Shown here: piece by piece, positions 2,245 to 18,288 of the stretch | Layout of the letters: each line of letters opens with the position of its first letter | How positions within the stretch are numbered: the first letter of the stretch is position 1 | Origin: Escherichia coli | GTDB taxonomy: Bacteria; Pseudomonadota; Gammaproteobacteria; Enterobacterales; Enterobacteriaceae | Assembly (NCBI RefSeq): GCF_003790525.1 | Contig: NZ_CP033635.1 | DNA: 64,000 nt | Strand: one strand, 5' to 3' | Program-made: the position numbers and the translations under genes | Notes under the pieces: model-generated | What the model was told of the DNA's origin: nothing | Seen by the model: only the letters and a program-made list of their open reading frames with translations | The model's database searches: none

Positions 2245-3786
<1,542 letters not shown>

Positions 3787-3806
3787 TTATAAAAATTGCT
3801 AAAATG

Positions 3807-3820
3807 CTAAACCGGTTTAG
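3807..3820. promoter_or_regulatory. perfect 14-bp palindrome CTAAACCGGTTTAG, candidate ScrR (LacI-family) operator upstream of scrY
   Basis: Perfect inverted repeat read directly from the sequence in the scrK-scrY intergenic region. Confidence 0.5.
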
Positions 3821-3865
3821 GTGTTGATAATAAAGCTGACTTTTTAGCCAGAGCAATTATTTTCG

Positions 3866-3879
3866 CTAAACCGATTTAG
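3866..3879. promoter_or_regulatory. second operator-like near-palindrome CTAAACCGATTTAG
   Basis: One-mismatch copy of the 3807-3820 palindrome, 59 bp away in the same intergenic region. Confidence 0.45.
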
Positions 3880-3929
3880 TAAATGTGACAGGCACGACAA
3901 ATCGGGTTACAGATACAACAGCAGGATCA

Positions 3930-4850
3930 CTATTGTGAAGGGAGATCGTGTTGTCGGGGTAAGGCGGTTATCGCGCCTTTAGCCGTGGTCGCCAGAGCAC
4001 CACAAATCTGAGCTTGTGCAATGATTCGTTCAAGCTGTCTGGTATTTGTTGGTATTCCAGAATCAGCCAGACCTGCAAGTAATCCAGCGACAAAAGCATC
4101 TCCTGCCCCGGTCGTATCGACGACAGAAACAGGTTTGGCGGGATAGTGGATAAACTGCCCCTGAAAATACACAAGTACGCCATTTTTTCCTTGTGTAATA
4201 AGCAATAAAGTCAACGAATAACGTTGTACTAATGAATATGCGCCTTGCTGAACCTGGCTTTCGCCACTGATGAATAGCAACTCTTCTTCGGACAATTTAG
4301 CGATATTCGCCAGCGAAAGTGCGCGATCAAGGTATTTCCTTAATAGCGCTTCACTCTGCCAGAGATCGCTGCGGATATTGGGATCAAAACTGATGTTTCC
4401 GCCAGCCTGACGTATTTTCTCCATAGCCAGAAATGCGGTACTTCGGGAAGGTTCTGCACTGAGCGCAATGGAACAAAGATGGAGCCATTCACCCGGCCCA
4501 AATGCAGGAAGGTCACCAGGTTGTAAAAAAAGATCGGCACTTGGGCGTACCATAAAGGTAAAGTTTCTTTCTCCTTGCTCATCAAGTCCTACAGCCACAA
4601 TTGAGGTGCGTTGTTGAGGATCAAGAGACATATAATGTGTATCAACATTTTCTGTACTCAGTGTCTGATACATAAAGCGACCGAAAGGATCATCGCCAAC
4701 TTTGCCAATAAAGGCACTTTTCCCCCCCAGCCTTGCGATACCGACTGCAACATTAGCAGGCGCCCCGCCAGGACACTGTAGTAGTCTCCCCTGGCTTTCG
4801 GGTAATAAATCAACAACCGCATCACCGAGTACCCATACTCTTGCGCTCAT
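3930..4850 (-). CDS. scrK: fructokinase (PfkB/ribokinase family)
   Basis: 306 aa ORF with N-terminal GDAVVD and C-terminal DTTGAGDAF motifs. Confidence 0.85.
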   Translation of the reverse strand: MSARVWVLGDAVVDLLPESQGRLLQCPGGAPANVAVGIARLGGKSAFIGKVGDDPFGRFMYQTLSTENVDTHYMSLDPQQRTSIVAVGLDEQGERNFTFMVRPSADLFLQPGDLPAFGPGEWLHLCSIALSAEPSRSTAFLAMEKIRQAGGNISFDPNIRSDLWQSEALLRKYLDRALSLANIAKLSEEELLFISGESQVQQGAYSLVQRYSLTLLLITQGKNGVLVYFQGQFIHYPAKPVSVVDTTGAGDAFVAGLLAGLADSGIPTNTRQLERIIAQAQICGALATTAKGAITALPRQHDLPSQ

Positions 4851-6519: not shown

Positions 6520-7797
6520 TTACTTGCTGCTAGCCATAGCAGGGGCGCTATCAGCAGTACGAATTTTTTGGAACAGCAAAAAGGTAAAGATGATCACCAT
6601 GGCAAGCGCCGCCATGCCCATTAGCCACATGTTGCGGTAGGCTTCTGCAGCGGGCAGGGTGTCTTGCCAGTGGCCGATAATCGGGTAAACGAAGACATCC
6701 GGCAGGAATCCAATCACCGAACAAATACCTACCGTGGTGCCCATAATGTAAGACGGTGTTCTCGCTTCGCCGGGGCAGGCCCAGTACAGTCCACGTGAGG
6801 CGTAGCAGGTGAATCCCAGTAGTAAAATCAGGCCAATCCCCATAGCGACCGATTGCGGGTTAGAGTTGGTAACAAGCAGGGCAGTCAGTGCCAGCAGGCC
6901 GATGATGGAAAGGATTTGAATTACGCGGGTAGGGGATTTCACTTTACTGTAGGTGGTGATAATGCCGCCAAGTGGACCACACAGCGCGCGGAAGATTTTG
7001 TTGATCACAATCCCCATGTAGCTCGCCGCCACCAGCGACATGCCGTACATTTCGGTGAGATAGTTGGTGGAGTAACTCAGAATGGCGTAGATGGTGAAGA
7101 CGCCAAAAATCACCATGCTGCAATACCAGGTGGTGCTGATGCGCAAAACAGCCAGGATGTCGCTAAGCTGGAATGATTGTTTTTCTTCGTTATTGGCACT
7201 GCGCAGGTTGTTGTTATCGCTAACAAAAAACCAGCACAGAATCCCCAACAAGATGTAAACCACACTATAGATGATAATGACCGTTTTCAGGCTGGCGCTG
7301 TCATCCGGTGCAAAGCGAGAAAAGACCCACATGGTAAACACCGCCAGCGACATTACACCGACGCCGCGCAGCCCTTCCATCCAGCCCATAATTTTCCCTT
7401 GCTCGCTATGATCGCCCAGCAACGATGCGGCTTTAATCGACACCGACCACAGCATTAAAATCGTCGTTATCGCAAAGGCAACCTGAATACAGAGCATTAC
7501 CCACAGCGGTGGATAAGTTGCCATTAACAGACCCAGTAATCCGGTAATGATCATCGCGGAAGTAATCATTTTGCGATGTGAGAATTTATCGGCAATAACG
7601 CCACTGGGCGCATAAAGAATAATAGCTGCAATACCAAAGGTACTCATTATTAAACCTATCTCGGTATTGCTGAATCCCATAAATTTCGCCATGGGAATTT
7701 GATAAATATAACGTAAATAAGCCAGGTCGAAACTAACGCCGCCGCTAAAACTAATTATCGCGAGGGTTATCCAACGGCGATATGAGTTGTGTTGCAT
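6520..7797 (-). CDS. yqcE: MFS transporter
   Basis: 425 aa ORF, 12-TM-like hydrophobic profile; 27 bp upstream of ygcE on the same strand. Confidence 0.8.
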   Translation of the reverse strand: MQHNSYRRWITLAIISFSGGVSFDLAYLRYIYQIPMAKFMGFSNTEIGLIMSTFGIAAIILYAPSGVIADKFSHRKMITSAMIITGLLGLLMATYPPLWVMLCIQVAFAITTILMLWSVSIKAASLLGDHSEQGKIMGWMEGLRGVGVMSLAVFTMWVFSRFAPDDSASLKTVIIIYSVVYILLGILCWFFVSDNNNLRSANNEEKQSFQLSDILAVLRISTTWYCSMVIFGVFTIYAILSYSTNYLTEMYGMSLVAASYMGIVINKIFRALCGPLGGIITTYSKVKSPTRVIQILSIIGLLALTALLVTNSNPQSVAMGIGLILLLGFTCYASRGLYWACPGEARTPSYIMGTTVGICSVIGFLPDVFVYPIIGHWQDTLPAAEAYRNMWLMGMAALAMVIIFTFLLFQKIRTADSAPAMASSK

Positions 7798-7821
7798 ATC
7801 GTATTCCCATTTGTAATAGAC

Positions 7822-7869
7822 AAAAAAAAGAGAAAAGTAAGCCGCCCTTTCAGGTGGATTACTTTTCTC
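7822..7869 (-). terminator. leader hairpin plus U8 tract 24 nt upstream of the yqcE start (candidate attenuator/terminator)
   Basis: 11-bp stem GAGAAAAGTAA / TTACTTTTCTC (7830-7840 / 7859-7869) followed on the minus strand by eight U (7822-7829). Confidence 0.5.
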
Positions 7870-7972
7870 AGGTCTCTAGTAATTGCAATAAGAAATAACA
7901 TGGAAAGCAGTGGTGTTGTGTGAGAGTAGTCACGCTTCTGCTTTTTAAAATTATTTGACAATACGAATATCA

Positions 7973-7994
7973 CACTGTGATTACGATCACATTA
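7973..7994. promoter_or_regulatory. CRP-type binding site (TGTGA-N6-TCACA) in the divergent yqcE/ygcW control region
   Basis: TGTGA at 7976-7980, 6-bp spacer, TCACA at 7987-7991: a perfect CRP core consensus. Confidence 0.55.
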
Positions 7995-8043
7995 GCGCTT
8001 ATGCCCTTATGCTAAAAATTATCTCCAGTTACCAGAGATAATG

Positions 8044-8090
8044 AGAAAGGTAACTTCCCTCTCGCGGGGGAAGTTACCTTTCTTTTTTTT
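8044..8090 (+). terminator. leader hairpin plus T8 tract 24 nt upstream of the ygcW start (candidate attenuator/terminator)
   Basis: 15-16 bp stem GAGAAAGGTAACTTCCC / GGGAAGTTACCTTTC (8043-8059 / 8068-8082), 8-nt loop, then TTTTTTTT (8083-8090). Confidence 0.55.
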
Positions 8091-8114
8091 GCTTTACGGA
8101 AATTGGAGTTAACT

Positions 8115-8900
8115 ATGTCAATCGAATCTCTCAATGCGTTCTCAATGGATTTTTTCTCCCTGAAAGGTAAAACAGCAATTGTTACCGGCGGGAATAGCGG
8201 TTTAGGCCAGGCATTTGCCATGGCGTTGGCCAAAGCTGGCGCAAATGTCTTTATCCCTAGCTTCGTCAAAGATAACGGCGAAACAAAGGAAATGATTGAA
8301 AAACAGGGTGTCGAAGTTGATTTTATGCAGGTGGATATCACCGCAGAAGGCGCGCCGCAGAAGATTATCGCTGCCTGCTGTGAGCGCTTCGGTACCGTAG
8401 ATATTCTGGTTAACAATGCCGGTATTTGTAAGCTGAATAAGGTGCTGGACTTTGGTCGTGCCGACTGGGACCCGATGATTGACGTGAACCTGACCGCCGC
8501 ATTCGAGTTAAGCTATGAAGCTGCAAAAATTATGATCCCGCAGAAAAGCGGTAAAATCATTAATATCTGTTCATTATTCTCTTACTTAGGTGGACAATGG
8601 TCACCTGCATATTCTGCCACTAAACATGCTCTTGCCGGATTCACCAAAGCTTATTGTGATGAACTAGGTCAATATAATATTCAGGTAAATGGTATTGCCC
8701 CTGGATATTACGCTACCGATATCACCCTGGCGACACGCAGTAATCCAGAAACCAATCAGCGCGTTCTTGATCATATTCCAGCAAACCGTTGGGGCGATAC
8801 TCAGGATTTAATGGGCACAGCCATATTTCTCGCAAGTCCGGCATCGAATTATGTCAACGGACATTTATTAGTGGTTGATGGCGGTTATTTAGTGCGCTAA
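8115..8900 (+). CDS. ygcW: short-chain dehydrogenase/reductase (KduD/gluconate 5-dehydrogenase-like)
   Basis: Start moved from the ORF-track TTG (8103) to ATG 8115 (MSIESLNAF..., GGAG Shine-Dalgarno at 8105-8108); TGGNSGLG Rossmann motif. Confidence 0.85.
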   Translation: MSIESLNAFSMDFFSLKGKTAIVTGGNSGLGQAFAMALAKAGANVFIPSFVKDNGETKEMIEKQGVEVDFMQVDITAEGAPQKIIAACCERFGTVDILVNNAGICKLNKVLDFGRADWDPMIDVNLTAAFELSYEAAKIMIPQKSGKIINICSLFSYLGGQWSPAYSATKHALAGFTKAYCDELGQYNIQVNGIAPGYYATDITLATRSNPETNQRVLDHIPANRWGDTQDLMGTAIFLASPASNYVNGHLLVVDGGYLVR

Positions 8901-8969
8901 TCCATAACGGTGGTTTCTGTTTTCTCTTATTAATGATTATTCCATTTTTATTATCAGGAAGGAATTACT

Positions 8970-10424
8970 ATGTCTTTATCTCGCGCAGCGATTGTCGACC
9001 AGCTAAAGGAAATTGTTGGTGCAGATCGCGTAATTACCGATGAAACAGTATTAAAGAAAAACAGTATTGACCGTTTTCGCAAATTTCCGGATATTCATGG
9101 CATTTATACTTTGCCTATTCCGGCAGCGGTCGTAAAACTCGGTTCCACAGAGCAAGTGTCCCGTGTGCTGAATTTTATGAATGCGCACAAAATTAACGGT
9201 GTGCCGCGTACCGGTGCTTCCGCCACTGAAGGCGGGCTGGAAACCGTTGTGGAAAACTCGGTGGTGCTCGACGGCTCTGCCATGAATCAAATCATTAATG
9301 TTGATATTGAGAATATGCAGGCCACGGCGCAATGTGGCGTTCCGCTGGAGGTGCTGGAAAACGCGTTGCGTGAAAAAGGTTACACCACGGGGCATTCACC
9401 GCAATCAAAACCGCTGGCGCAGATGGGCGGCCTGGTAGCAACCCGCAGTATCGGGCAGTTCTCCACACTCTACGGCGCAATCGAAGATATGGTCGTTGGT
9501 CTGGAAGCAGTATTGGCTGATGGCACCGTCACACGTATTAAAAACGTACCACGCCGCGCGGCAGGCCCGGACATTCGTCACATTATCATCGGCAACGAAG
9601 GTGCATTGTGCTATATCACTGAAGTAACAGTGAAAATCTTTAAGTTCACCCCGGAAAACAACCTCTTCTACGGCTATATCCTGGAAGACATGAAAACCGG
9701 CTTCAACATCCTGCGTGAAATCATGGTGGAAGGGTATCGTCCGTCGATCGCTCGTTTGTATGACGTTGAAGATGGCACCCAACACTTCACCCATTTTGCC
9801 GACGGTAAATGTGTGCTGATCTTTATGGCTGAAGGTAACCCTCGCATTGCGAAGGCGACGGGTGAAGGGATTGCTGAAATCGTGGCGCGCTACCCGCAGT
9901 GCCAGCGCGTGGACAGCAAGCTGATCGAAACCTGGTTTAACAACCTGAACTGGGGACCGGATAAAGTGGCTGCCGAACGTGTGCAGATCCTCAAAACCGG
10001 CAACATGGGCTTTACCACCGAAGTGTCCGGCTGCTGGAGCTGCATCCACGAAATCTACGAAAGCGTTATTAACCGTATTCGCACCGAGTTCCCGCACGCC
10101 GACGACATCACCATGCTGGGCGGTCACTCCTCTCATAGCTATCAGAACGGCACCAACATGTACTTCGTCTACGACTACAACGTCGTTGACTGTAAGCCGG
10201 AAGAGGAAATCGACAAGTACCACAATCCGCTCAACAAAATCATTTGCGAAGAAACCATTCGCCTCGGCGGTTCGATGGTGCACCACCACGGTATTGGTAA
10301 ACATCGCGTTCACTGGAGCAAACTGGAACACGGCAGCGCGTGGACGTTGCTGGAAGGGCTGAAAAAACAGTTCGATCCTAACGGCATTATGAATACGGGT
10401 ACTATCTATCCGATTGAAAAATAA
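8970..10424 (+). CDS. ygcU: FAD-linked oxidase (GlcD / alkyl-DHAP synthase-like)
   Basis: 484 aa ORF with FAD-binding PCMH-type domain signature. Confidence 0.85.
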   Translation: MSLSRAAIVDQLKEIVGADRVITDETVLKKNSIDRFRKFPDIHGIYTLPIPAAVVKLGSTEQVSRVLNFMNAHKINGVPRTGASATEGGLETVVENSVVLDGSAMNQIINVDIENMQATAQCGVPLEVLENALREKGYTTGHSPQSKPLAQMGGLVATRSIGQFSTLYGAIEDMVVGLEAVLADGTVTRIKNVPRRAAGPDIRHIIIGNEGALCYITEVTVKIFKFTPENNLFYGYILEDMKTGFNILREIMVEGYRPSIARLYDVEDGTQHFTHFADGKCVLIFMAEGNPRIAKATGEGIAEIVARYPQCQRVDSKLIETWFNNLNWGPDKVAAERVQILKTGNMGFTTEVSGCWSCIHEIYESVINRIRTEFPHADDITMLGGHSSHSYQNGTNMYFVYDYNVVDCKPEEEIDKYHNPLNKIICEETIRLGGSMVHHHGIGKHRVHWSKLEHGSAWTLLEGLKKQFDPNGIMNTGTIYPIEK

Positions 10425-10465
10425 TGTGTGAGGCAGCGTTCCGCGATGACGGGGCGTTGCCTTTT

Positions 10466-10496
10466 CGGCTTCTCAGGCGAGAAGCCGTTCTTATTA
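10466..10496 (+). terminator. intercistronic terminator-like hairpin between ygcU and ygcS
   Basis: 9-bp stem CGGCTTCTC / GAGAAGCCG with loop AGGC, followed by TTCTTATTA. Confidence 0.4.
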
Positions 10497-10517
10497 CCGG
10501 ACAATGAAGGGGTAAAG

Positions 10518-11855
10518 ATGAACACTTCACCGGTGCGAATGGATGATTTACCACTTAACCGTTTTCACTGCCGCATTGCTGCGCTCACTTTCGGTGCGCA
10601 CCTGACCGACGGTTATGTCCTCGGCGTCATTGGTTACGCCATTATTCAGCTTACGCCCGCCATGCAACTGACGCCGTTTATGGCGGGAATGATTGGCGGC
10701 TCAGCACTCCTTGGTTTGTTTCTTGGCAGCCTGGTTCTTGGATGGATCTCCGACCATATTGGTCGGCAAAAAATCTTCACCTTCAGCTTTTTGCTGATTA
10801 CGCTCGCTTCGTTCTTGCAATTTTTTGCCACCACGCCAGAGCATCTTATTGGGCTGCGCATTTTGATCGGCATTGGTCTGGGAGGCGATTACTCAGTCGG
10901 TCACACCTTGCTGGCTGAATTTTCCCCGCGCCGCCATCGCGGTATTTTACTGGGCGCATTCAGCGTGGTGTGGACCGTAGGCTATGTGTTGGCAAGTATT
11001 GCCGGACATCACTTTATTTCCGAAAACCCGGAGGCCTGGCGCTGGCTGCTGGCATCAGCGGCGTTACCAGCCTTGCTGATTACGCTGCTACGTTGGGGCA
11101 CGCCGGAATCGCCACGCTGGCTACTGCGCCAGGGACGTTTTGCTGAAGCTCACGCTATTGTGCATCGCTATTTGGGGCCACATGTTTTACTGGGCGATGA
11201 AGTGGCAGCGGCGACCCATAAACACATCAAAACCTTGTTTTCTTCGCGCTACTGGCGACGCACGGCGTTTAACAGCGTCTTCTTTGTCTGCCTCGTAATC
11301 CCATGGTTTGTGATTTATACCTGGCTGCCGACCATCGCCCAGACTATTGGTCTGGAGGATGCGCTGACCGCCAGCCTGATGCTTAATGCGTTGTTAATTG
11401 TGGGCGCGCTGCTGGGATTAGTTCTGACGCACCTGCTGGCACATCGCAAGTTTTTGCTGGGAAGTTTTTTGCTGCTGGCGGCAACGCTGGTAGTGATGGC
11501 CTGTTTGCCTTCCGGCAGTTCATTAACGCTGCTGCTTTTTGTTCTCTTCAGCACCACCATTTCGGCAGTCAGTAATCTGGTGGGCATTTTGCCTGCGGAA
11601 AGTTTTCCTACTGACATTCGCTCGCTGGGCGTCGGTTTTGCCACCGCCATGAGTCGGTTGGGGGCGGCGGTAAGTACTGGCCTGCTGCCGTGGGTGCTGG
11701 CGCAGTGGGGAATGCAAGCCACCTTATTGCTCCTGGCGGCAGTGTTGTTGGTTGGTTTTGTTGTGACCTGGCTATGGGCACCAGAAACCAAAGCACTCCC
11801 GCTGGTGGCGGCGGGAAATGTAGGAGGTGCGAATGAACATTCTGTTAGCGTTTAA
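10518..11855 (+). CDS. ygcS: MFS sugar/metabolite transporter
   Basis: Start taken at ATG 10518 (MNTSPVRMDD...), 445 aa; the ORF-track start at 10428 is an upstream in-frame extension. Confidence 0.8.
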   Translation: MNTSPVRMDDLPLNRFHCRIAALTFGAHLTDGYVLGVIGYAIIQLTPAMQLTPFMAGMIGGSALLGLFLGSLVLGWISDHIGRQKIFTFSFLLITLASFLQFFATTPEHLIGLRILIGIGLGGDYSVGHTLLAEFSPRRHRGILLGAFSVVWTVGYVLASIAGHHFISENPEAWRWLLASAALPALLITLLRWGTPESPRWLLRQGRFAEAHAIVHRYLGPHVLLGDEVAAATHKHIKTLFSSRYWRRTAFNSVFFVCLVIPWFVIYTWLPTIAQTIGLEDALTASLMLNALLIVGALLGLVLTHLLAHRKFLLGSFLLLAATLVVMACLPSGSSLTLLLFVLFSTTISAVSNLVGILPAESFPTDIRSLGVGFATAMSRLGAAVSTGLLPWVLAQWGMQATLLLLAAVLLVGFVVTWLWAPETKALPLVAAGNVGGANEHSVSV

Positions 11856-12612
11856 AGCCGAACCGGATGCCGGAATGCTGGCGGAAAAAGAGTGGCAGGC
11901 GGCGGCTCAGGGTAATATTGGACCAGATGTTTCGCTACTGCGAAGTTTACTCGGTGCTGATGAACAGGCTGCCGCCGCGCTGCTGTTGGCGCAGAGAAAA
12001 AATGGTACTCCGATGTCTTTAACCGCGTTGAGCATGGGGGATGAACGGGCGTTGCACTGGCTGCGCTATCTCATGGCTCTTGGGTTTGAGGAAGCTGTAT
12101 TGCTGGAGACGGCGGCAGATCTGCGCTTTGCGCCGGAATTTGTCGCTCGCCATATTGCCGAGTGGCAGCATCAGAATCCGCTGGATCTGATCATTACCGG
12201 CTGCCAAAGCAGCGAAGGACAGAATGGGCAAACGCCATTTTTGCTGGCGGAAATGCTGGGCTGGCCCTGTTTCACCCAGGTGGAGCGTTTCACACTCGAC
12301 GCGCCGTTTATCACCCTCGAACAGCGTACTGAAAATGGGGTGCGCTGTTGCCGGGTTCGCTTGCCTGCGGTGATTGCCGTGCGTCAGTGCGGTGAAGTGG
12401 CCTTGCCAGTACCGGGAATGCGCCAGCGAATGGCTGCGGGGAAAGCAGAAATTATCCGTAAAACTGTTGCTGTCGAATTGCCAGCGATGCAGTGTCTGCA
12501 ACTGGCAAGAGCAGAGCAACGACGCGGAGCGACGCTGATTGATGGGCAAACGGTAGCAGAAAAAGCGCAAAAGCTATGGCAGGACTATTTACGCCAAAGG
12601 ATGCAGCCATGA
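11833..12612 (+). CDS. ygcR: electron transfer flavoprotein beta-like subunit (FixA-like)
   Basis: ATG 11833 (MNILLAFK...) preceded by AGGAGG at 11822-11827. Confidence 0.8.
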   Translation: MNILLAFKAEPDAGMLAEKEWQAAAQGNIGPDVSLLRSLLGADEQAAAALLLAQRKNGTPMSLTALSMGDERALHWLRYLMALGFEEAVLLETAADLRFAPEFVARHIAEWQHQNPLDLIITGCQSSEGQNGQTPFLLAEMLGWPCFTQVERFTLDAPFITLEQRTENGVRCCRVRLPAVIAVRQCGEVALPVPGMRQRMAAGKAEIIRKTVAVELPAMQCLQLARAEQRRGATLIDGQTVAEKAQKLWQDYLRQRMQP

Positions 12613-13469
12613 ATATCGCCATTGTGACAATAAATCAGGAGAATGCCGCAATAGCGAGCTGGCTGGCAGAACAGGATTTCAGCGGTTGTACCCTGGCGCA
12701 CTGGCAGATTGAACCTCAGCCCGTAGTGGCGGAACAGGTGCTGGATGCGTTGGTGGAACAGTGGCAGCGAACGCCTGCGGACGTTGTTCTCTTTCCGCCG
12801 GGAACGTTTGGCGATGAACTGTCGACCCGGCTGGCCTGGCGTTTACATGGTGCAAGCATCTGCCAGGTGACTTCGTTAGATATTCCAACCGTAAGCGTGC
12901 GCAAATCCCACTGGGGAAATGCGTTGACGGCGACGCTGCAAACAGACAAACGCCCGCTATGCCTTTCGCTGGCACGTCAGGCGGGAGCAGATAAAAACGC
13001 CACGTTGTCCTCTGGGATGCAGCAACTGAACATTGTCCCCGGCGCGCTTCCCGACTGGCTGGTTAGCCTAGAAAACCTGAAAAATGTTACCCGCGACCCA
13101 TTAGCTGAAGCCAGACGGGTGCTGGTGGTGGGGCAGGGCGGAGAGGCAGATAACCAGGAAATCGCTATGCTGGCAGAAAAGCTGGGAGCCGAAGTGGGCT
13201 ACAGTCGGGCACGAGTGATGAACGGTGGCGTTGATGCCGAAAAAGTCATTGGTATTTCCGGACATCTGCTGGCACCTGAGGTGTGTATTGTTGTTGGTGC
13301 TTCCGGCGCAGCAGCGTTAATGGCGGGCGTACGCAATAGCAAGTTTGTGGTGGCGATTAATCATGACGCCAGCGCAGCGGTATTTTCACAGGCAGATGTT
13401 GGCGTGGTTGATGACTGGAAAGTGGTGCTGGAGGCACTGGTGACAAACATTCACGCAGATTGCCAATAA
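12609..13469 (+). CDS. ygcQ: electron transfer flavoprotein alpha-like subunit (FixB-like)
   Basis: ATG 12609 (MNIAIVT...) overlapping the ygcR stop (ATGA). Confidence 0.8.
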   Translation: MNIAIVTINQENAAIASWLAEQDFSGCTLAHWQIEPQPVVAEQVLDALVEQWQRTPADVVLFPPGTFGDELSTRLAWRLHGASICQVTSLDIPTVSVRKSHWGNALTATLQTDKRPLCLSLARQAGADKNATLSSGMQQLNIVPGALPDWLVSLENLKNVTRDPLAEARRVLVVGQGGEADNQEIAMLAEKLGAEVGYSRARVMNGGVDAEKVIGISGHLLAPEVCIVVGASGAAALMAGVRNSKFVVAINHDASAAVFSQADVGVVDDWKVVLEALVTNIHADCQ

Positions 13470-13475
13470 CGTGTT

Positions 13476-13585
13476 GCCGGATGATCCTGCCTACGGTTCT
13501 GGCCTGGGGACTTGTAGGCCTGATAAGACGCGTCAAGCGTCGCATCAGGCGCTGAATGTCGGATGTGGCGTGCAGCCTACAAATC
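13476..13585. repeat. REP/BIME palindromic units in the convergent ygcQ/ygcP gap
   Basis: GCCTGATAAGACGCGTCAAGCGTCGCATCAGGC and flanking GCCGGATG.../...GCAGCCTACA REP-like units. Confidence 0.6.
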
Positions 13586-13615
13586 ACACAAATTCAATTC
13601 GTTACGATTATCCCG

Positions 13616-14191
13616 TTAAAGCAATTTTTTCGCCAACGTCCAGACCCCGGTATTCGTGGTGGAAAGCGCCACGACACCCGCGTTAATCGCATTACGCGCA
13701 TCTTCTTCATCGCACACCAGCCCGCCGGCAATCAGCGGTTGGCGGATTTTCTCCGTCACCCAGCCCAGCACTTTGGGCATACAGCCAGGCAGGATCTCAA
13801 TACAATCCGGATTCGATTGCGCAACTTGCTTATCAATGTTGTGAAACGAAATCGAATCAACAATAAACAGTCGATGAATACAGAAAAAACCTTCCGCTCT
13901 TGCTGCTTTCAGCATTGAGGCTTTGGTACTGATAATTCCGTCCGCCTCGGTCACCAGTTTCAAAAACTGAATCACCACTTCTTTATTTGACGCGCCTTCC
14001 AGCAAATCAACATGAATAAAAGCATATTTCCCGGCGTTCTTAATCTTTTTAACGATATTACTAATGGTGCAGATATTGCCGTACAACACGGAAATAAACT
14101 GGCATTCAGAGTCGATTGCCAGTTGCAGGCTGGCATTATCTTTAACGGCAGCAATCACCGGATTCTGGCGGAGCAGGTGTAAGAGGGGCAT
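13616..14191 (-). CDS. ygcP: GlpP-family (glycerol-3-phosphate-responsive type) transcription antiterminator
   Basis: 191 aa ORF; sequence and size match the GlpP/YgcP family. Confidence 0.8.
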   Translation of the reverse strand: MPLLHLLRQNPVIAAVKDNASLQLAIDSECQFISVLYGNICTISNIVKKIKNAGKYAFIHVDLLEGASNKEVVIQFLKLVTEADGIISTKASMLKAARAEGFFCIHRLFIVDSISFHNIDKQVAQSNPDCIEILPGCMPKVLGWVTEKIRQPLIAGGLVCDEEDARNAINAGVVALSTTNTGVWTLAKKLL

Positions 14192-14207
14192 AAATTATCC
14201 TTATTAT

Positions 14208-14468
14208 TTATCCAAAACGGTAGGTGATGCCGAATCCGGAAGGTGGATAGCGCCACTGTTGTAGTGTTTTTTCGTCGCACAGCAAACGGCAGGTGCCACA
14301 CTCCAGGCAACTGCGATAGTCAATACGTAAGTCACCTTCTGGTGTGAGCGAAAAAAGACCAGCCGGACAAGCGTTAATCAACCATTGTACCGTCTGACGC
14401 TCAACGGAGTCAGCCGGAACAATGTGCGGCGCATCGGCAACGCGCCAGAGATTACGGGCTACAGACAT
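14208..14468 (-). CDS. ygcO: ferredoxin-like protein (FixX-like)
   Basis: Start taken at MSVARNLW (86 aa); cysteine cluster CLECGTCRLLC; overlaps the ygcN stop. Confidence 0.7.
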   Translation of the reverse strand: MSVARNLWRVADAPHIVPADSVERQTVQWLINACPAGLFSLTPEGDLRIDYRSCLECGTCRLLCDEKTLQQWRYPPSGFGITYRFG

Positions 14469-15730
14469 CGCAGACTCCTGATAACATCGCCCGCCAGATG
14501 CCACAGGCCGTGACGACGTAAATGACGCCAGAATAACTGGTGCAGCGGTGGAACAGGTTTATCACCCTGATCCCATAAATCGCGGGAAATATCCTGCATT
14601 AACGCAGGCCACGCCCGATACCAGCCAGGGCGTTGCAAAAGCGCCGGAACATGCTGATAACGTTGTAGAACATCCCACAGCAGGCTGCGCTCTACGTTGT
14701 GATGATAAAGCGCAAACAGATTTTGCGGCTCGCGGTGCTGGCAGGCGCTTATCAGCGTTTGTGCCGCCGCCTGCGCGCCAGTTAGCGCCATATCCATGCC
14801 GCGCACGGAAATTCCGGTATTGACGCAACTGCGCAACGTATCGCCCACCAGCAGCCAGCCGTTACCGGCGTATTGCACCTGCATACTGTGCAAGCCACCT
14901 TCTGGCACCAGATGCGCACCATACTCCAGTGATTCCGTGTTTTTGATAAGCGGGCGCACTGCCGGATGCGTTTTAAAGCGAGCCAGCAGCTCGCTTGCCG
15001 GAACACGACTTTGCGTAAGTGAAGAGAGCGGGCAAACAATCCCTAACGAGAGCGTTTGTTGATTAGTATAAAGAAATGCGCCGCCGGGTAAGTCATCACA
15101 GATCCCGCCGCTGAACAGCAACGCTGCGCCTTCGTTATTCTCCAGATGAAAACGTTCTTCAATAGCGGATGTTTCCAGCGACAGCACTTCTTTGATCCCC
15201 AACGCCATCGCTTCGCCAGCAGGACGAGTCACTAACCCGTGACGTTCAGCCAGGACGCTGTTGGCACCTTCTGCCAGCACCACATAACGGGCGCGGAGAA
15301 TATCGTCACCACAAATGACACCACACACCCTGCCGTTTTCTTCATACAGCGCATCCACCGTCGCACCGGGGATGCATTCGACACCTTCTTTTTCGGCTTC
15401 GGCAACCAGCCACGGATCGAACCGTGCACGTAATACACTCCAGGATTCACCGCCGGGCTGTAAGCTGGAAAACGTCGTTGCGCCATCCGGCGTTAACAGG
15501 GAAAGGCTTTCGTGAGTGATGCGTCGTTCAAGAGGCGCGGTCAGATGAAATTGTGGGAGGAGTTCCGCGAGCGCCTGGGTATATAAACGCCCGCCGGAAA
15601 GATTTTTGCTGCCGGGGATTTCAGCGCGTTCCAGTAACAAAACGGATAAACCCGCTCGCGCGCAGCGTAACGCGCAAGCGGTGCCTGCAATACCGGCACC
15701 AATAATAATAATGTCGCAGTCGTCTTCCAT
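14459..15730 (-). CDS. ygcN: FAD-dependent oxidoreductase (FixC / ETF-quinone oxidoreductase-like)
   Basis: Start taken at MEDDCDIIIIGAGIAG (423 aa); GxGxxG FAD motif. Confidence 0.8.
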   Translation of the reverse strand: MEDDCDIIIIGAGIAGTACALRCARAGLSVLLLERAEIPGSKNLSGGRLYTQALAELLPQFHLTAPLERRITHESLSLLTPDGATTFSSLQPGGESWSVLRARFDPWLVAEAEKEGVECIPGATVDALYEENGRVCGVICGDDILRARYVVLAEGANSVLAERHGLVTRPAGEAMALGIKEVLSLETSAIEERFHLENNEGAALLFSGGICDDLPGGAFLYTNQQTLSLGIVCPLSSLTQSRVPASELLARFKTHPAVRPLIKNTESLEYGAHLVPEGGLHSMQVQYAGNGWLLVGDTLRSCVNTGISVRGMDMALTGAQAAAQTLISACQHREPQNLFALYHHNVERSLLWDVLQRYQHVPALLQRPGWYRAWPALMQDISRDLWDQGDKPVPPLHQLFWRHLRRHGLWHLAGDVIRSLRCL

Positions 15731-15807
15731 GTCATGCCCCAGATATCCAGAACACAACACCCTAACATAGCGTTACTTAAGGGAAATTGACCGCCGACAC
15801 ACTCTTA

Positions 15808-16173
15808 TCATTCGCCGCGATAGATACAACCTGCGGTGCAGGTTTCTTTTACCATCACCGCACTTAACAGCGGCACAACGGGTTTAACCTGATCCCAAAT
15901 CCATTTTGCTAAAACTTCGCTGGTTGGGTTTTCCAGACCTGGAATATCATTGAGATAATGGTGATCGAGGCGCTCGTAGGTTGGCTTAAACGCCGCTTTC
16001 AGTTCAGCGAAATCGATAATCCAGCCCGTATGCGGATCGACTTCCCCGGTAATTTCCAGTCGCACCATAAAGGAATGCCCGTGCAGGCGACCACATTTAT
16101 GTCCTTCCGGGACGTGTGGTAAGCGGTGAGCGGCTTCGAAGGTGAAATCTTTAAATAACGTGGTGGACATCAT
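15808..16173 (-). CDS. queD: 6-carboxy-5,6,7,8-tetrahydropterin synthase
   Basis: Start taken at [19 protein letters not shown] (121 aa); conserved CGRLHGHS motif. Confidence 0.85.
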
Positions 16174-16488
16174 AATTTCTCTACAGGACGATAAAACCGC
16201 CGTAGAGTACCGGAAAGGCTGTTTTTTCGCATTATCTAAAACGACTTTGTTGCGCAAAATCGCTGATTTATCTTAATGATTGGCTAAATTCATTTGTTTT
16301 TCATTGGGTTGAGTAATCTATTTTGTTGTTAAAGACTATTGCTAAAACAGGTTAGTCGATTTGGTTATTAGTTATCGCTATCCCGTCTTTAATCCACACC
16401 GTTCACCCCGTTAACCTTACCTTCTCTTCTGTTTTATGGGCGCTGACAGGGCGCAGAAACAGCTTTGCTTACTGGAACATAACGACGC

Positions 16489-18288
16489 ATGACGACACAG
16501 GTCTCACCTTCCGCGTTGCTTCCGTTGAACCCGGAGCAACTGGCACGCCTTCAGGCGGCCACGACCGATTTAACTCCCACCCAGCTTGCCTGGGTTTCTG
16601 GCTATTTCTGGGGCGTGCTCAACCAGCAGCCTGCTGCGCTTGCAGCGACGCCAGCGCCCGCCGCAGAAATGCCGGGTATAACTATTATCTCCGCCTCGCA
16701 AACCGGCAATGCGCGCCGGGTTGCTGAAGCGTTACGCGATGACTTATTAGCGGCAAAACTAAACGTTAAGCTGGTGAACGCGGGCGACTATAAATTCAAA
16801 CAAATCGCCAGCGAAAAACTGCTTATCGTGGTGACGTCAACGCAAGGGGAAGGGGAACCGCCGGAAGAAGCCGTCGCGCTGCATAAGTTCCTGTTCTCCA
16901 AAAAAGCGCCGAAGCTGGAAAACACCGCATTTGCCGTGTTTAGCCTCGGCGATAGCTCTTATGAATTTTTCTGCCAGTCCGGGAAAGATTTTGACAGCAA
17001 GCTGGCGGAACTGGGCGGTGAACGCCTGCTCGACCGTGTCGATGCCGATGTTGAATATCAGGCCGCTGCCAGCGAGTGGCGCGCCCGCGTGGTTGATGCG
17101 CTTAAATCGCGTGCGCCTGTCGCGGCACCTTCGCAATCCGTCGCTACTGGCACGGTAAATGAAATCCACACCAGCCCGTATAGCAAAGACGCGCCGCTGG
17201 TGGCGAGCCTCTCTGTTAACCAGAAAATTACCGGGCGTAACTCTGAAAAAGACGTTCGCCATATCGAAATTGACTTAGGTGACTCGGGCCTGCGTTACCA
17301 GCCGGGTGACGCGCTGGGCGTCTGGTATCAGAACGATCCGGCACTGGTGAAAGAACTTGTCGAACTGCTGTGGCTGAAAGGCGATGAACCTGTCACCGTT
17401 GAGGGCAAAACCCTGCCGCTGAATGAGGCGCTACAGTGGCATTTTGAACTGACCGTCAACACCGCCAACATTGTTGAGAACTATGCCACGCTTACCCGCA
17501 GCGAAACGCTGCTGCCGCTGGTGGGCGATAAAGCGAAGTTGCAGCATTACGCCGCGACGACGCCGATTGTTGACATGGTGCGTTTCTCTCCGGCGCAACT
17601 GGATGCCGAAGCGCTGATTAATCTGCTGCGCCCGCTGACGCCGCGCCTGTATTCCATCGCCTCTTCGCAGGCGGAAGTCGAGAACGAAGTACACGTCACC
17701 GTTGGTGTGGTGCGTTACGACGTGGAAGGCCGCGCCCGTGCCGGTGGTGCCTCCAGCTTCCTCGCGGATCGTGTGGAAGAAGAGGGTGAAGTCCGCGTCT
17801 TTATCGAACATAACGATAACTTCCGCCTGCCAGCCAATCCGGAAACGCCGGTGATTATGATTGGCCCAGGCACCGGCATTGCGCCGTTCCGCGCCTTTAT
17901 GCAGCAACGCGCCGCCGACGAAGCGCCGGGGAAAAACTGGCTGTTCTTTGGCAACCCGCACTTTACGGAAGATTTCCTCTACCAGGTGGAATGGCAGCGC
18001 TACGTCAAAGAGGGCGTGCTGACGCGTATCGATCTTGCCTGGTCGCGCGATCAAAAAGAAAAAATTTACGTACAAGACAAACTGCGCGAACAGGGCGCGG
18101 AGCTGTGGCGCTGGATCAATGACGGTGCCCACATTTATGTCTGCGGCGACGCTAATCGCATGGCGAAAGACGTTGAACAGGCACTTCTGGAAGTGATTGC
18201 CGAATTTGGTGGCATGGACACCGAAGCGGCGGATGAATTTTTAAGTGAGCTGCGCGTAGAGCGCCGTTATCAGCGAGATGTCTACTAA
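16489..18288 (+). CDS. cysJ: sulfite reductase [NADPH] flavoprotein alpha subunit
   Basis: 599 aa; flavodoxin plus FAD/NADPH domains. Confidence 0.95.

Follow-up and report, generated by a model that had tools for sequence, protein, structure and literature searches.

Does the junction between ygcU and ygcS in Escherichia coli hold a signal that sets the expression of the genes on its two sides apart, and if so, of what kind? We investigated this question in a stretch of 64,000 nucleotides of E. coli DNA (contig NZ_CP033635.1; hereafter the window, numbered from its first letter), in which the ygc cluster is arranged as ygcE and yqcE on the minus strand, ygcW-ygcU-ygcS-ygcR-ygcQ on the plus strand, and ygcP-ygcO-ygcN again on the minus strand. 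A sequence-only reading had placed a terminator-like hairpin in a gap of 93 nt between ygcU and ygcS. This gap length holds for the K-12 annotation, with the TAA stop codon of ygcU at 10422-10424 (+) and the ATG of ygcS at 10518, and the gap itself (10425-10517) corresponds to 2897871-2897963 of K-12 MG1655 (NC_000913.3). In the literature on the ygc genes we found no treatment of the ygcU-ygcS junction, and an Rfam scan of 7500-17000 (E-value of at most 1) gave no covariance-model match in 10425-10517.

A few features of the surrounding DNA are recorded here for completeness. In the matching genome, a CRISPR array is annotated beside ygcE (window positions ~3300-4376, L001 1-1077), where CRISPR2 is known to lie, between ygcE and queE. 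Past ygcQ, where the operon ends, there are REP-type palindromes (13470-13600) and a sub-threshold Rfam match to naRNA4 (13517-13589, minus strand; 29.4 bits against a gathering score of 59.5), which most likely arises because the naRNA4 family is REP-derived. In E. coli O157:H7 F1273 (L069), ygcS is annotated as a frameshifted pseudogene, and decay of the distal operon genes may be under way in some lineages.

Results

Two hairpins in the gap

The hairpin at 10466-10487 (+; hereafter hairpin 2) has the sequence CGGCTTCTC-AGGC-GAGAAGCCG, in which the 5' arm (10466-10474) and the 3' arm (10479-10487) form nine perfect pairs, six G-C and three A-U, around a 4-nt loop (10475-10478); it is identical in K-12. 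Directly 3' of the stem lies the U-rich tract UUCUUAUU (10488-10495, +), part of a tail (10488-10497, TTCTTATTAC) with six T among its first eight positions. By itself, hairpin 2 folds with -14.9 kcal/mol (z = -4.5), and 0/200 shuffles fold as well. The GC-rich 9-bp stem, 4-nt loop and U-rich tail that had been read from the sequence are thus confirmed by both sequence and folding. Rho-independent terminators combine a GC-rich stem of about 5-14 bp and a loop of 3-8 nt with some 7-9 nt of U-rich sequence immediately behind the stem; hairpin 2 has both parts, its tract being interrupted at 6/8 U. A version of the tail with a repaired U-tract would read UUUUUUUU. Hairpins with a perfect stem of 9 bp or more and a loop of 3-8 nt are uncommon: the 64-kb window has five distinct ones, among them that of the ygcW leader, where dinucleotide shuffles lead one to expect 1.7. 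The chance of finding such a perfect hairpin in a given 93-nt gap is about 0.0025.

The gap contains another hairpin that the sequence-only reading had overlooked, though it is larger than hairpin 2. Hairpin 1 (10430-10463, +) has a stem of 14 bp, including four G.U pairs, and the loop CGAUGA, and it folds with -23.6 kcal/mol (z = -3.4); the gap as a whole, with both hairpins, reaches -42.9 kcal/mol (z = -4.7). A run of UUUU (10462-10465) stands at the end of hairpin 1, directly upstream of hairpin 2. Hairpin 1 counts as another borderline hairpin of terminator type. None of the non-Escherichia genera that we compared has it; within the Escherichia species it shows pair-preserving substitutions (U.G to C-G and U.G to U-A). 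The gap between ygcW and ygcU contains no comparable hairpin (z = -0.54). We also considered a small predicted hairpin over the ribosome-binding site of ygcS (10488-10520), which folds no better than its shuffles (z = -0.65), and on this basis rejected sequestration of that site by a hairpin.

We found no promoter-like site in 10300-10520, that is, none within or 3' of the gap. As there is no promoter between hairpin 2 and ygcS, the expression of ygcSRQ could be set at this place quantitatively at most, and not independently. Synonymous-site conservation at the 3' end of ygcU is not raised (0.56, against a gene mean of 0.63), which argues against an embedded promoter or the body of a conserved sRNA.

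The start codon of ygcS

Whether the hairpins are intergenic depends on where ygcS begins. In most E. coli genomes, RefSeq/PGAP annotates a YgcS of 469 aa that starts at the ATG at 10446-10448 (+), which lies within the loop of hairpin 1, and both hairpins are then coding; the curated K-12 annotation has ygcS start at 10518 and encode 445 aa. Both hairpins might accordingly be features of a coding sequence instead of an intergenic signal, a reading that draws on the use of the upstream start in most genomes, on the open frame from 10428 to 10518 in Escherichia and on the invariance of ATG 10446 in nine Escherichia sequences. The orthologues speak against it: in all Enterobacteriaceae loci YgcS aligns (tblastn) from residue 1 at the equivalent of the ATG at 10518-10520 (+), which follows a conserved Shine-Dalgarno sequence, GAAGGGG (10506-10512, +; 5 nt 5' of the ATG). 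This sequence closes a block, TTACCGGAC..GAAGGGG (10494-10512, +), that is conserved in alignments of the orthologous loci. Furthermore, an in-frame upstream start is missing from 21 out of 28 non-Escherichia loci, in five a stop codon occurs 12 nt upstream, and the 24-codon extension sits on an insert that only Escherichia has. Together with the curated start in K-12, these observations make a coding role of the hairpins very improbable, and we rejected the N-terminal extension of YgcS as conserved coding sequence given the missing in-frame starts and the in-frame stops in other genera. Because of the alignment of the orthologues, their lack of upstream starts and the restriction of the insert to Escherichia, the PGAP start at 10446 is very probably wrong and the hairpins intergenic. 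One E. coli genome has lost 1 bp 3' of the upstream ATG, and its ygcS is annotated from the 10518-type start.

Conservation and covariation of hairpin 2

To see how far hairpin 2 extends beyond E. coli, we compared 65 loci encoding relatives of YgcU, with 33 distinct Enterobacteriaceae sequences at the ygcU-ygcS junction. Two of the loci come from assemblies with unexpected labels, one a 'Planctomycetota MAG' (L003) whose ygcU locus is 99% identical to that of E. coli, and the other a 'Chryseobacterium sp.' (L025) whose ygcU locus is 88% identical to that of E. coli, as in other Enterobacteriaceae; both are probably contamination or mis-binning in public assemblies. Among the loci examined, every Enterobacteriaceae locus with the gene order ygcU-ygcS has hairpin 2 at the junction, either as the consensus CGGCUUCYC-N4-GRGAAGCCG or as a compensated variant of it. 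The carriers are Escherichia, Klebsiella, Raoultella, Superficieibacter, Citrobacter, Pluralibacter, Mixta, Entomohabitans, Yokenella, Cedecea, Buttiauxella and several genomes labelled Enterobacter, and the compensated stems (5' arm/3' arm) are CGGCTCCTC/GAGGAGCCG, TGGCTTCCT/GGGAAGCCA, CGGCTTTTC/GGAAAGCCG, GGTCGGCTC/GAGCCGACC and GTGCGGTCTC/GAGGCCGCAC. We found no further copies of the hairpin motif in these loci: there is one per locus, always at the ygcU-ygcS junction.

Over the 33 sequences, 94.9% of the cells are paired, compared to 38-57% when the 3' partner is slid. Eight out of 10 pairs have changed on both sides in a compensatory manner, and 0/500 shuffles reach the observed values. 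RNAalifold, which was run independently, recovers the base of the helix. The wobbles are strongly unequal (22 U.G cells against 2 G.U cells, with 5 non-pairs in the nine core pairs); since almost all of them are U.G on the plus strand, and hence would be C.A mismatches on the other, the structure forms in RNA of the sense strand. This strand bias also rules out that hairpin 2 is a DNA operator. In most genera 14-18 out of the 18 stem positions are identical, while the loop varies freely between genera and the 4-fold sites of ygcU are saturated (identity 0.43-0.53). Because identity and pairing of the stem are kept where neutral sites are saturated, hairpin 2 is under clear purifying selection. 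The identity of the stem exceeds what pairing alone requires, and this excess could point to a sequence-specific partner.

The 93-nt gap is found in 5,092 out of 5,426 E. coli genomes at a median of one place per genome, and hairpin 2 is nearly invariant across these 5,092 genomes. A dispersed repeat of the REP/BIME or ERIC/IRU type was therefore rejected as an identity for hairpin 2; as a control for the copy number, the insert found at this site in Enterobacter (L010) is dispersed, with five places in the median E. coli genome. One Escherichia lineage (L002) carries a C.A mismatch in the stem.

The U-tract and the strength of the terminator

In the 33 sequences, T occurs at a frequency of 55-82% at each of the tail positions 1-8 and drops to 24% at position 9. 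The enrichment is thus limited to the 8 nt after the stem, which is the length of a terminator U-tract. With stem and 8-nt U-rich tract both conserved, and the stem with covariation, across the Enterobacteriaceae, the earlier description of the hairpin as terminator-like is supported. As a score of terminator strength we used the discriminant of d'Aubenton-Carafa (1990), of which only relative values should be read: hairpin 2 reaches +2.0, just positive and borderline, against +7.7 for the core of hairpin 1, +38 for the ygcW leader and +32 for the yqcE leader. The tails of the orthologues range from U8 (an Enterobacteriaceae MAG) and U7 (C. sedlakii) to poor ones, and the stem is intact with a poor U-tract in C. 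koseri, C. amalonaticus, C. youngae and Enterobacter sp. 10-1. Given that just 18 out of 33 orthologous hairpins score above 0 and that intact stems occur with poor tails, the stem is more conserved than its quality as a terminator.

This difference bears on a second reading, in which the hairpin would work mainly after transcription, by holding up 3'-to-5' exonucleases or marking a processing boundary, and would so stabilize ygcWU relative to ygcSRQ, with little or no termination. Such a role would agree with the stems that are kept beside poor U-tracts, with the borderline score in E. coli and with the GC-rich hairpins, not homologous to hairpin 2, that stand at the equivalent place in Serratia, Rahnella, Limnobaculum and Budvicia. 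A stabilizer has no need of a U-tract, however, and a T enrichment that, over the 33 sequences, covers exactly the first 8 nt past the stem is a signature of termination. We consider a purely post-transcriptional role possible but rather unlikely, and it overlaps with the explanation that we favor, as terminator hairpins also stabilize 3' ends.

A hairpin also follows ygcU where this is the last gene (Erwinia, Pantoea, Ewingella and some Serratia), with a T-rich tail in the Erwinia and Pantoea loci, and in Serratia a hairpin of the form GGCCCGG..CCGGGCC stands 3' of ygcU whether or not ygcS comes next. In MAGs of Firmicutes and Desulfobacterales, ygcR lies directly 3' of ygcU, with no hairpin. 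These arrangements fit an origin as the terminator of a ygcWU module that was made internal once ygcSRQ joined downstream. It is conceivable that hairpin 2 is now nothing else than this old end-of-operon terminator, without a present function in E. coli, where the U-tract is eroded and the stem of L002 has its mismatch. A relic would not be expected to keep 94.9% pairing and compensatory changes across genera whose synonymous sites are saturated, nor to stay nearly invariant in thousands of E. coli genomes, and we regard this possibility as unlikely.

Published maps of 3' ends bear on the leaders upstream but not on hairpin 2. The tables of Adams et al., 2021 (PMC7815308) and of TERMITe list no 3' end at ygcU/ygcS; as transcription ends in the ygcW leader under the conditions used, this absence is expected and uninformative.

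The leader elements and the question of a second checkpoint

The sequence-only reading had also suggested that hairpin 2 might be another antitermination checkpoint, besides the leader hairpins of ygcW and yqcE. These two leaders (ygcW, 8029-8092, +, comprising the antiterminator/terminator element and its U-run and serving here as the reference for a strong terminator and for the leader motif; yqcE, 7822-7882, minus strand) share an element of about 30 nt, CARTTACYAGAGAYNNNGAGAAARGTAAY, which is more than the motif GAGAAA(A/G)GTAA alone. The upstream RTTACY copy in this element can pair with the 5' arm of the leader terminator (RGTAAY) and co-varies with it in other genera, for example as AGTTGCC/GGCGACT in one MAG; this predicted pairing is a classic antiterminator/terminator alternative. 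The leader terminators are presumed to be targets of the GlpP-like antiterminator YgcP. For growth in LB, Adams et al., 2021 (PMC7815308) list a Term-seq 3' end in front of each of the two genes: that of ygcW lies 38 nt from the gene and outside Rho regions, with a read count of 40,640 and an intrinsic score of 15.8, and that of yqcE lies at 36 nt, with an intrinsic score of 11.4. On the K-12 sequence (NC_000913.3) these 3' ends are at 2900311 (-) and 2900556 (+), which correspond to ~8077 and ~7833 in the window. Both are located where the inner stem ends on its 3' side (following GUUACC and CUUACUUUU, respectively) and not at the end of the long U-run. This position suggests that exonucleases have trimmed the ends or, alternatively, that the hairpin which works as terminator is the inner stem.

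None of this is found at the ygcU-ygcS junction. The window has exactly two copies of the element TTACYAGAGA-N(3-6)-GAGAAARGTAA, one at 7859-7882 (-) and one at 8029-8053 (+), and the same search bears out the earlier statement that hairpin 2 lacks the GAGAAA(A/G)GTAA motif. In about 50 related loci the element, nearly invariant across Enterobacterales, is upstream of ygcW and yqcE only and never at the ygcU-ygcS junction. One match lies 5' of the ygcW homologue in a Syntrophomonadaceae MAG (L052, position 5549). When the 3' arm of hairpin 2 was removed, we found no conserved alternative pairing of its 5' arm, which remained unpaired in E. coli and paired inconsistently in other genera; when folded in full context, the terminator hairpin always forms. 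With the leader element confined to the regions upstream of ygcW and yqcE, and no conserved antiterminator pairing, a further antitermination checkpoint at this place is unsupported.

The same observations weigh on the idea that hairpin 2 is a site to which a protein or an RNA binds sequence-specifically, YgcP (with this as its second target) being one candidate, and thereby a regulated checkpoint for ygcSRQ. The near invariance of the stem (GGCUUCYC/GRGAAGCC) despite saturated neutral sites would be explained by such a site, and the apex CUUCCC..GGGAAG resembles that of the ygcW leader terminator (ACUUCCC..GGGGAAGU). Yet the yqcE leader lacks the CUUCCC apex, so that the resemblance is not common to both leaders, and the loop of hairpin 2 is free to vary. 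Considering in addition the absence of the leader element from the junction, in the window as in the related loci, the lack of a conserved alternative pairing of the 5' arm and the lack of an Rfam match, we find a binding site of this kind quite unlikely.

The distance from the ygcU stop codon

Where no insert is present (23 sequences), hairpin 2 begins 6-17 nt after the ygcU stop codon, and in 19 out of 23 the distance is 8-9 nt. In Escherichia, the insert that carries hairpin 1 has moved the stop codon 41 nt away from hairpin 2. On the other side, the end of the stem and the ygcS ATG are 19-32 nt apart across the sequences, a space taken up by the ribosome-binding site. A terminating ribosome masks a terminator near the stop codon: repression of the tR2 terminator was nearly complete at a few to about 10 bp past the stop codon, and its full efficiency was reached once the distance exceeded about 30 bp (Li et al., 2015; PMC4824070). 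The ancestral spacing of 8-9 nt is within this masking range, so read-through there would depend on translation of ygcU.

The spacer between the ygcU stop codon and hairpin 2 looks like a hot spot for insertion. Inserts of 120-200 nt are found in Klebsiella spallanzanii, Raoultella terrigena and Enterobacter sp. 10-1, and C. koseri has a short form at the same position. The inserts of these four lineages are ERIC/IRU-like repeats (L006 9456-9590, L010 9456-9660, L054 9456-9580 and L008 3689-3749), and the core of the Enterobacter insert (GTGAAT..CCAGGAGC..GTGACTGGGG) corresponds to that of ERIC/IRU. Over 22 nt, the 5' half of hairpin 1 (GAGGCAGCGT..GATGACG) can be matched to the K. spallanzanii insert at its right end, with orientation and position in agreement and a score of 22 against a null maximum of 20 (300 shuffles). 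One out of eight such comparisons is clearly significant, so the match is only suggestive, and hairpin 1 may be the relic of an ERIC-like repeat.

From these distances, a translation-gated internal terminator can be envisaged. The ribosome that finishes ygcU would mask the stem, and transcription would reach ygcSRQ only while translation of ygcU kept pace with RNA polymerase; the insertions in Escherichia and, independently, in four lineages with ERIC-like inserts would have broken this gate, after which the U-tract eroded and read-through was restored. A greater distance between stop codon and stem does go with a weaker U-tract, which is the expected direction, though not significantly (Mann-Whitney, p = 0.11, with sequences that are not independent). 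We put this scenario forward tentatively and give it a low probability. A more remote variant would make hairpin 2 the 3' end of an unrecognized regulatory RNA from the 3' end of ygcU; neither the RIL-seq nor the Hfq interactome supplements mention ygcU/ygcS, and they thus offer no support for an sRNA.

Discussion

Overall, we consider it somewhat more probable than not that hairpin 2, together with the 8 nt of U-rich sequence behind it, is a conserved RNA element of the Rho-independent terminator type, located on the sense strand inside the ygcW-ygcU-ygcS-ygcR-ygcQ unit and acting as a leaky internal attenuator and 3'-end stabilizer that sets ygcWU above ygcSRQ. We envisage that RNA polymerase that has passed the regulated leader terminator would stop at hairpin 2 in a fraction of rounds, and that the hairpin would then shield the 3' end of the ygcWU message. 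The enzyme genes ygcWU would in this way be expressed above the genes for the transporter and the electron-transfer flavoprotein, the latter being made only by read-through. In E. coli, hairpin 2 is expected to be weak, given the interrupted U-tract and the borderline score, and hairpins 1 and 2 may act together; in most other genera, where the stem follows the ygcU stop codon by 8-9 nt, read-through would be coupled to the translation of ygcU. YgcU probably needs YgcRQ as an electron acceptor, as the MAGs of Firmicutes and Desulfobacterales with ygcR next to ygcU suggest, so strong termination at hairpin 2 would be counter-productive. The earlier proposal that the hairpin makes ygcSRQ expression partly independent of the upstream genes is therefore plausible in a restricted form, as partial uncoupling from ygcWU by a leaky attenuator.

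Internal Rho-independent terminators and attenuators are familiar in E. coli, including those at rplL-rpoB, at rpsU-dnaG (T1) and at gltI-gltJ, where the terminator yields SroC. Like these, hairpin 2 is a GC-rich stem-loop with a U-tract on the sense strand between cistrons of one unit, it has no promoter downstream, and graded expression of the distal genes would be expected. Unlike these, its termination is predicted from sequence, with the interrupted U-tract and borderline score of the E. coli copy, and no sRNA product comparable to SroC is known for it, ygcU/ygcS being absent from the RIL-seq supplements. Judged by its sequence, hairpin 2 is a previously undescribed example of this familiar kind, an intra-operon hairpin of the intrinsic-terminator type that is predicted to be weak in E. 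coli. With the ygcW and yqcE leader terminators it has in common the gene cluster, the hairpin and U-run type and the conservation across the same genera, and with the ygcW leader only, the resemblance of the stem apex. The leaders differ from it by the TTACYAGAGA-N-GAGAAARGTAA element with the pairing RTTACY copy, by runs of U8-9, by scores of +32 to +38 and by their Term-seq 3' ends.

Two further classes invite comparison. REP/BIME elements such as that of malE-malF, a case of differential decay within an operon, and ERIC/IRU repeats resemble hairpin 2 in being stable hairpins in an intercistronic gap; in contrast to them, hairpin 2 is single-copy in E. coli, has a U-tract and is present with or without a repeat insert. 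Ribosome-masked terminators, for which the pyrBI attenuator and the tR2 constructs (PMC4824070) are models, resemble it in the short distance past the stop codon in the insert-free sequences. They differ in that the distance in Escherichia exceeds the ~30 bp at which repression of tR2 disappears (PMC4824070), and in that no leader peptide or regulatory logic is evident at hairpin 2, where the link to translation is one that we infer.

The fixed spacing of 8-9 nt between the ygcU stop codon and the stem offers a natural test case for the masking of terminators by ribosomes. The annotation of ygcS carries a probable systematic start-codon error, which would affect most of the ~5,000 RefSeq genomes of E. 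coli. The ygc cluster is an uncharacterised catabolic locus of E. coli, and a conserved weak stop signal that splits its operon into an enzyme part (ygcWU) and a transporter and electron-transfer-flavoprotein part (ygcSRQ) would be useful to consider when the pathway is to be induced or reconstructed.
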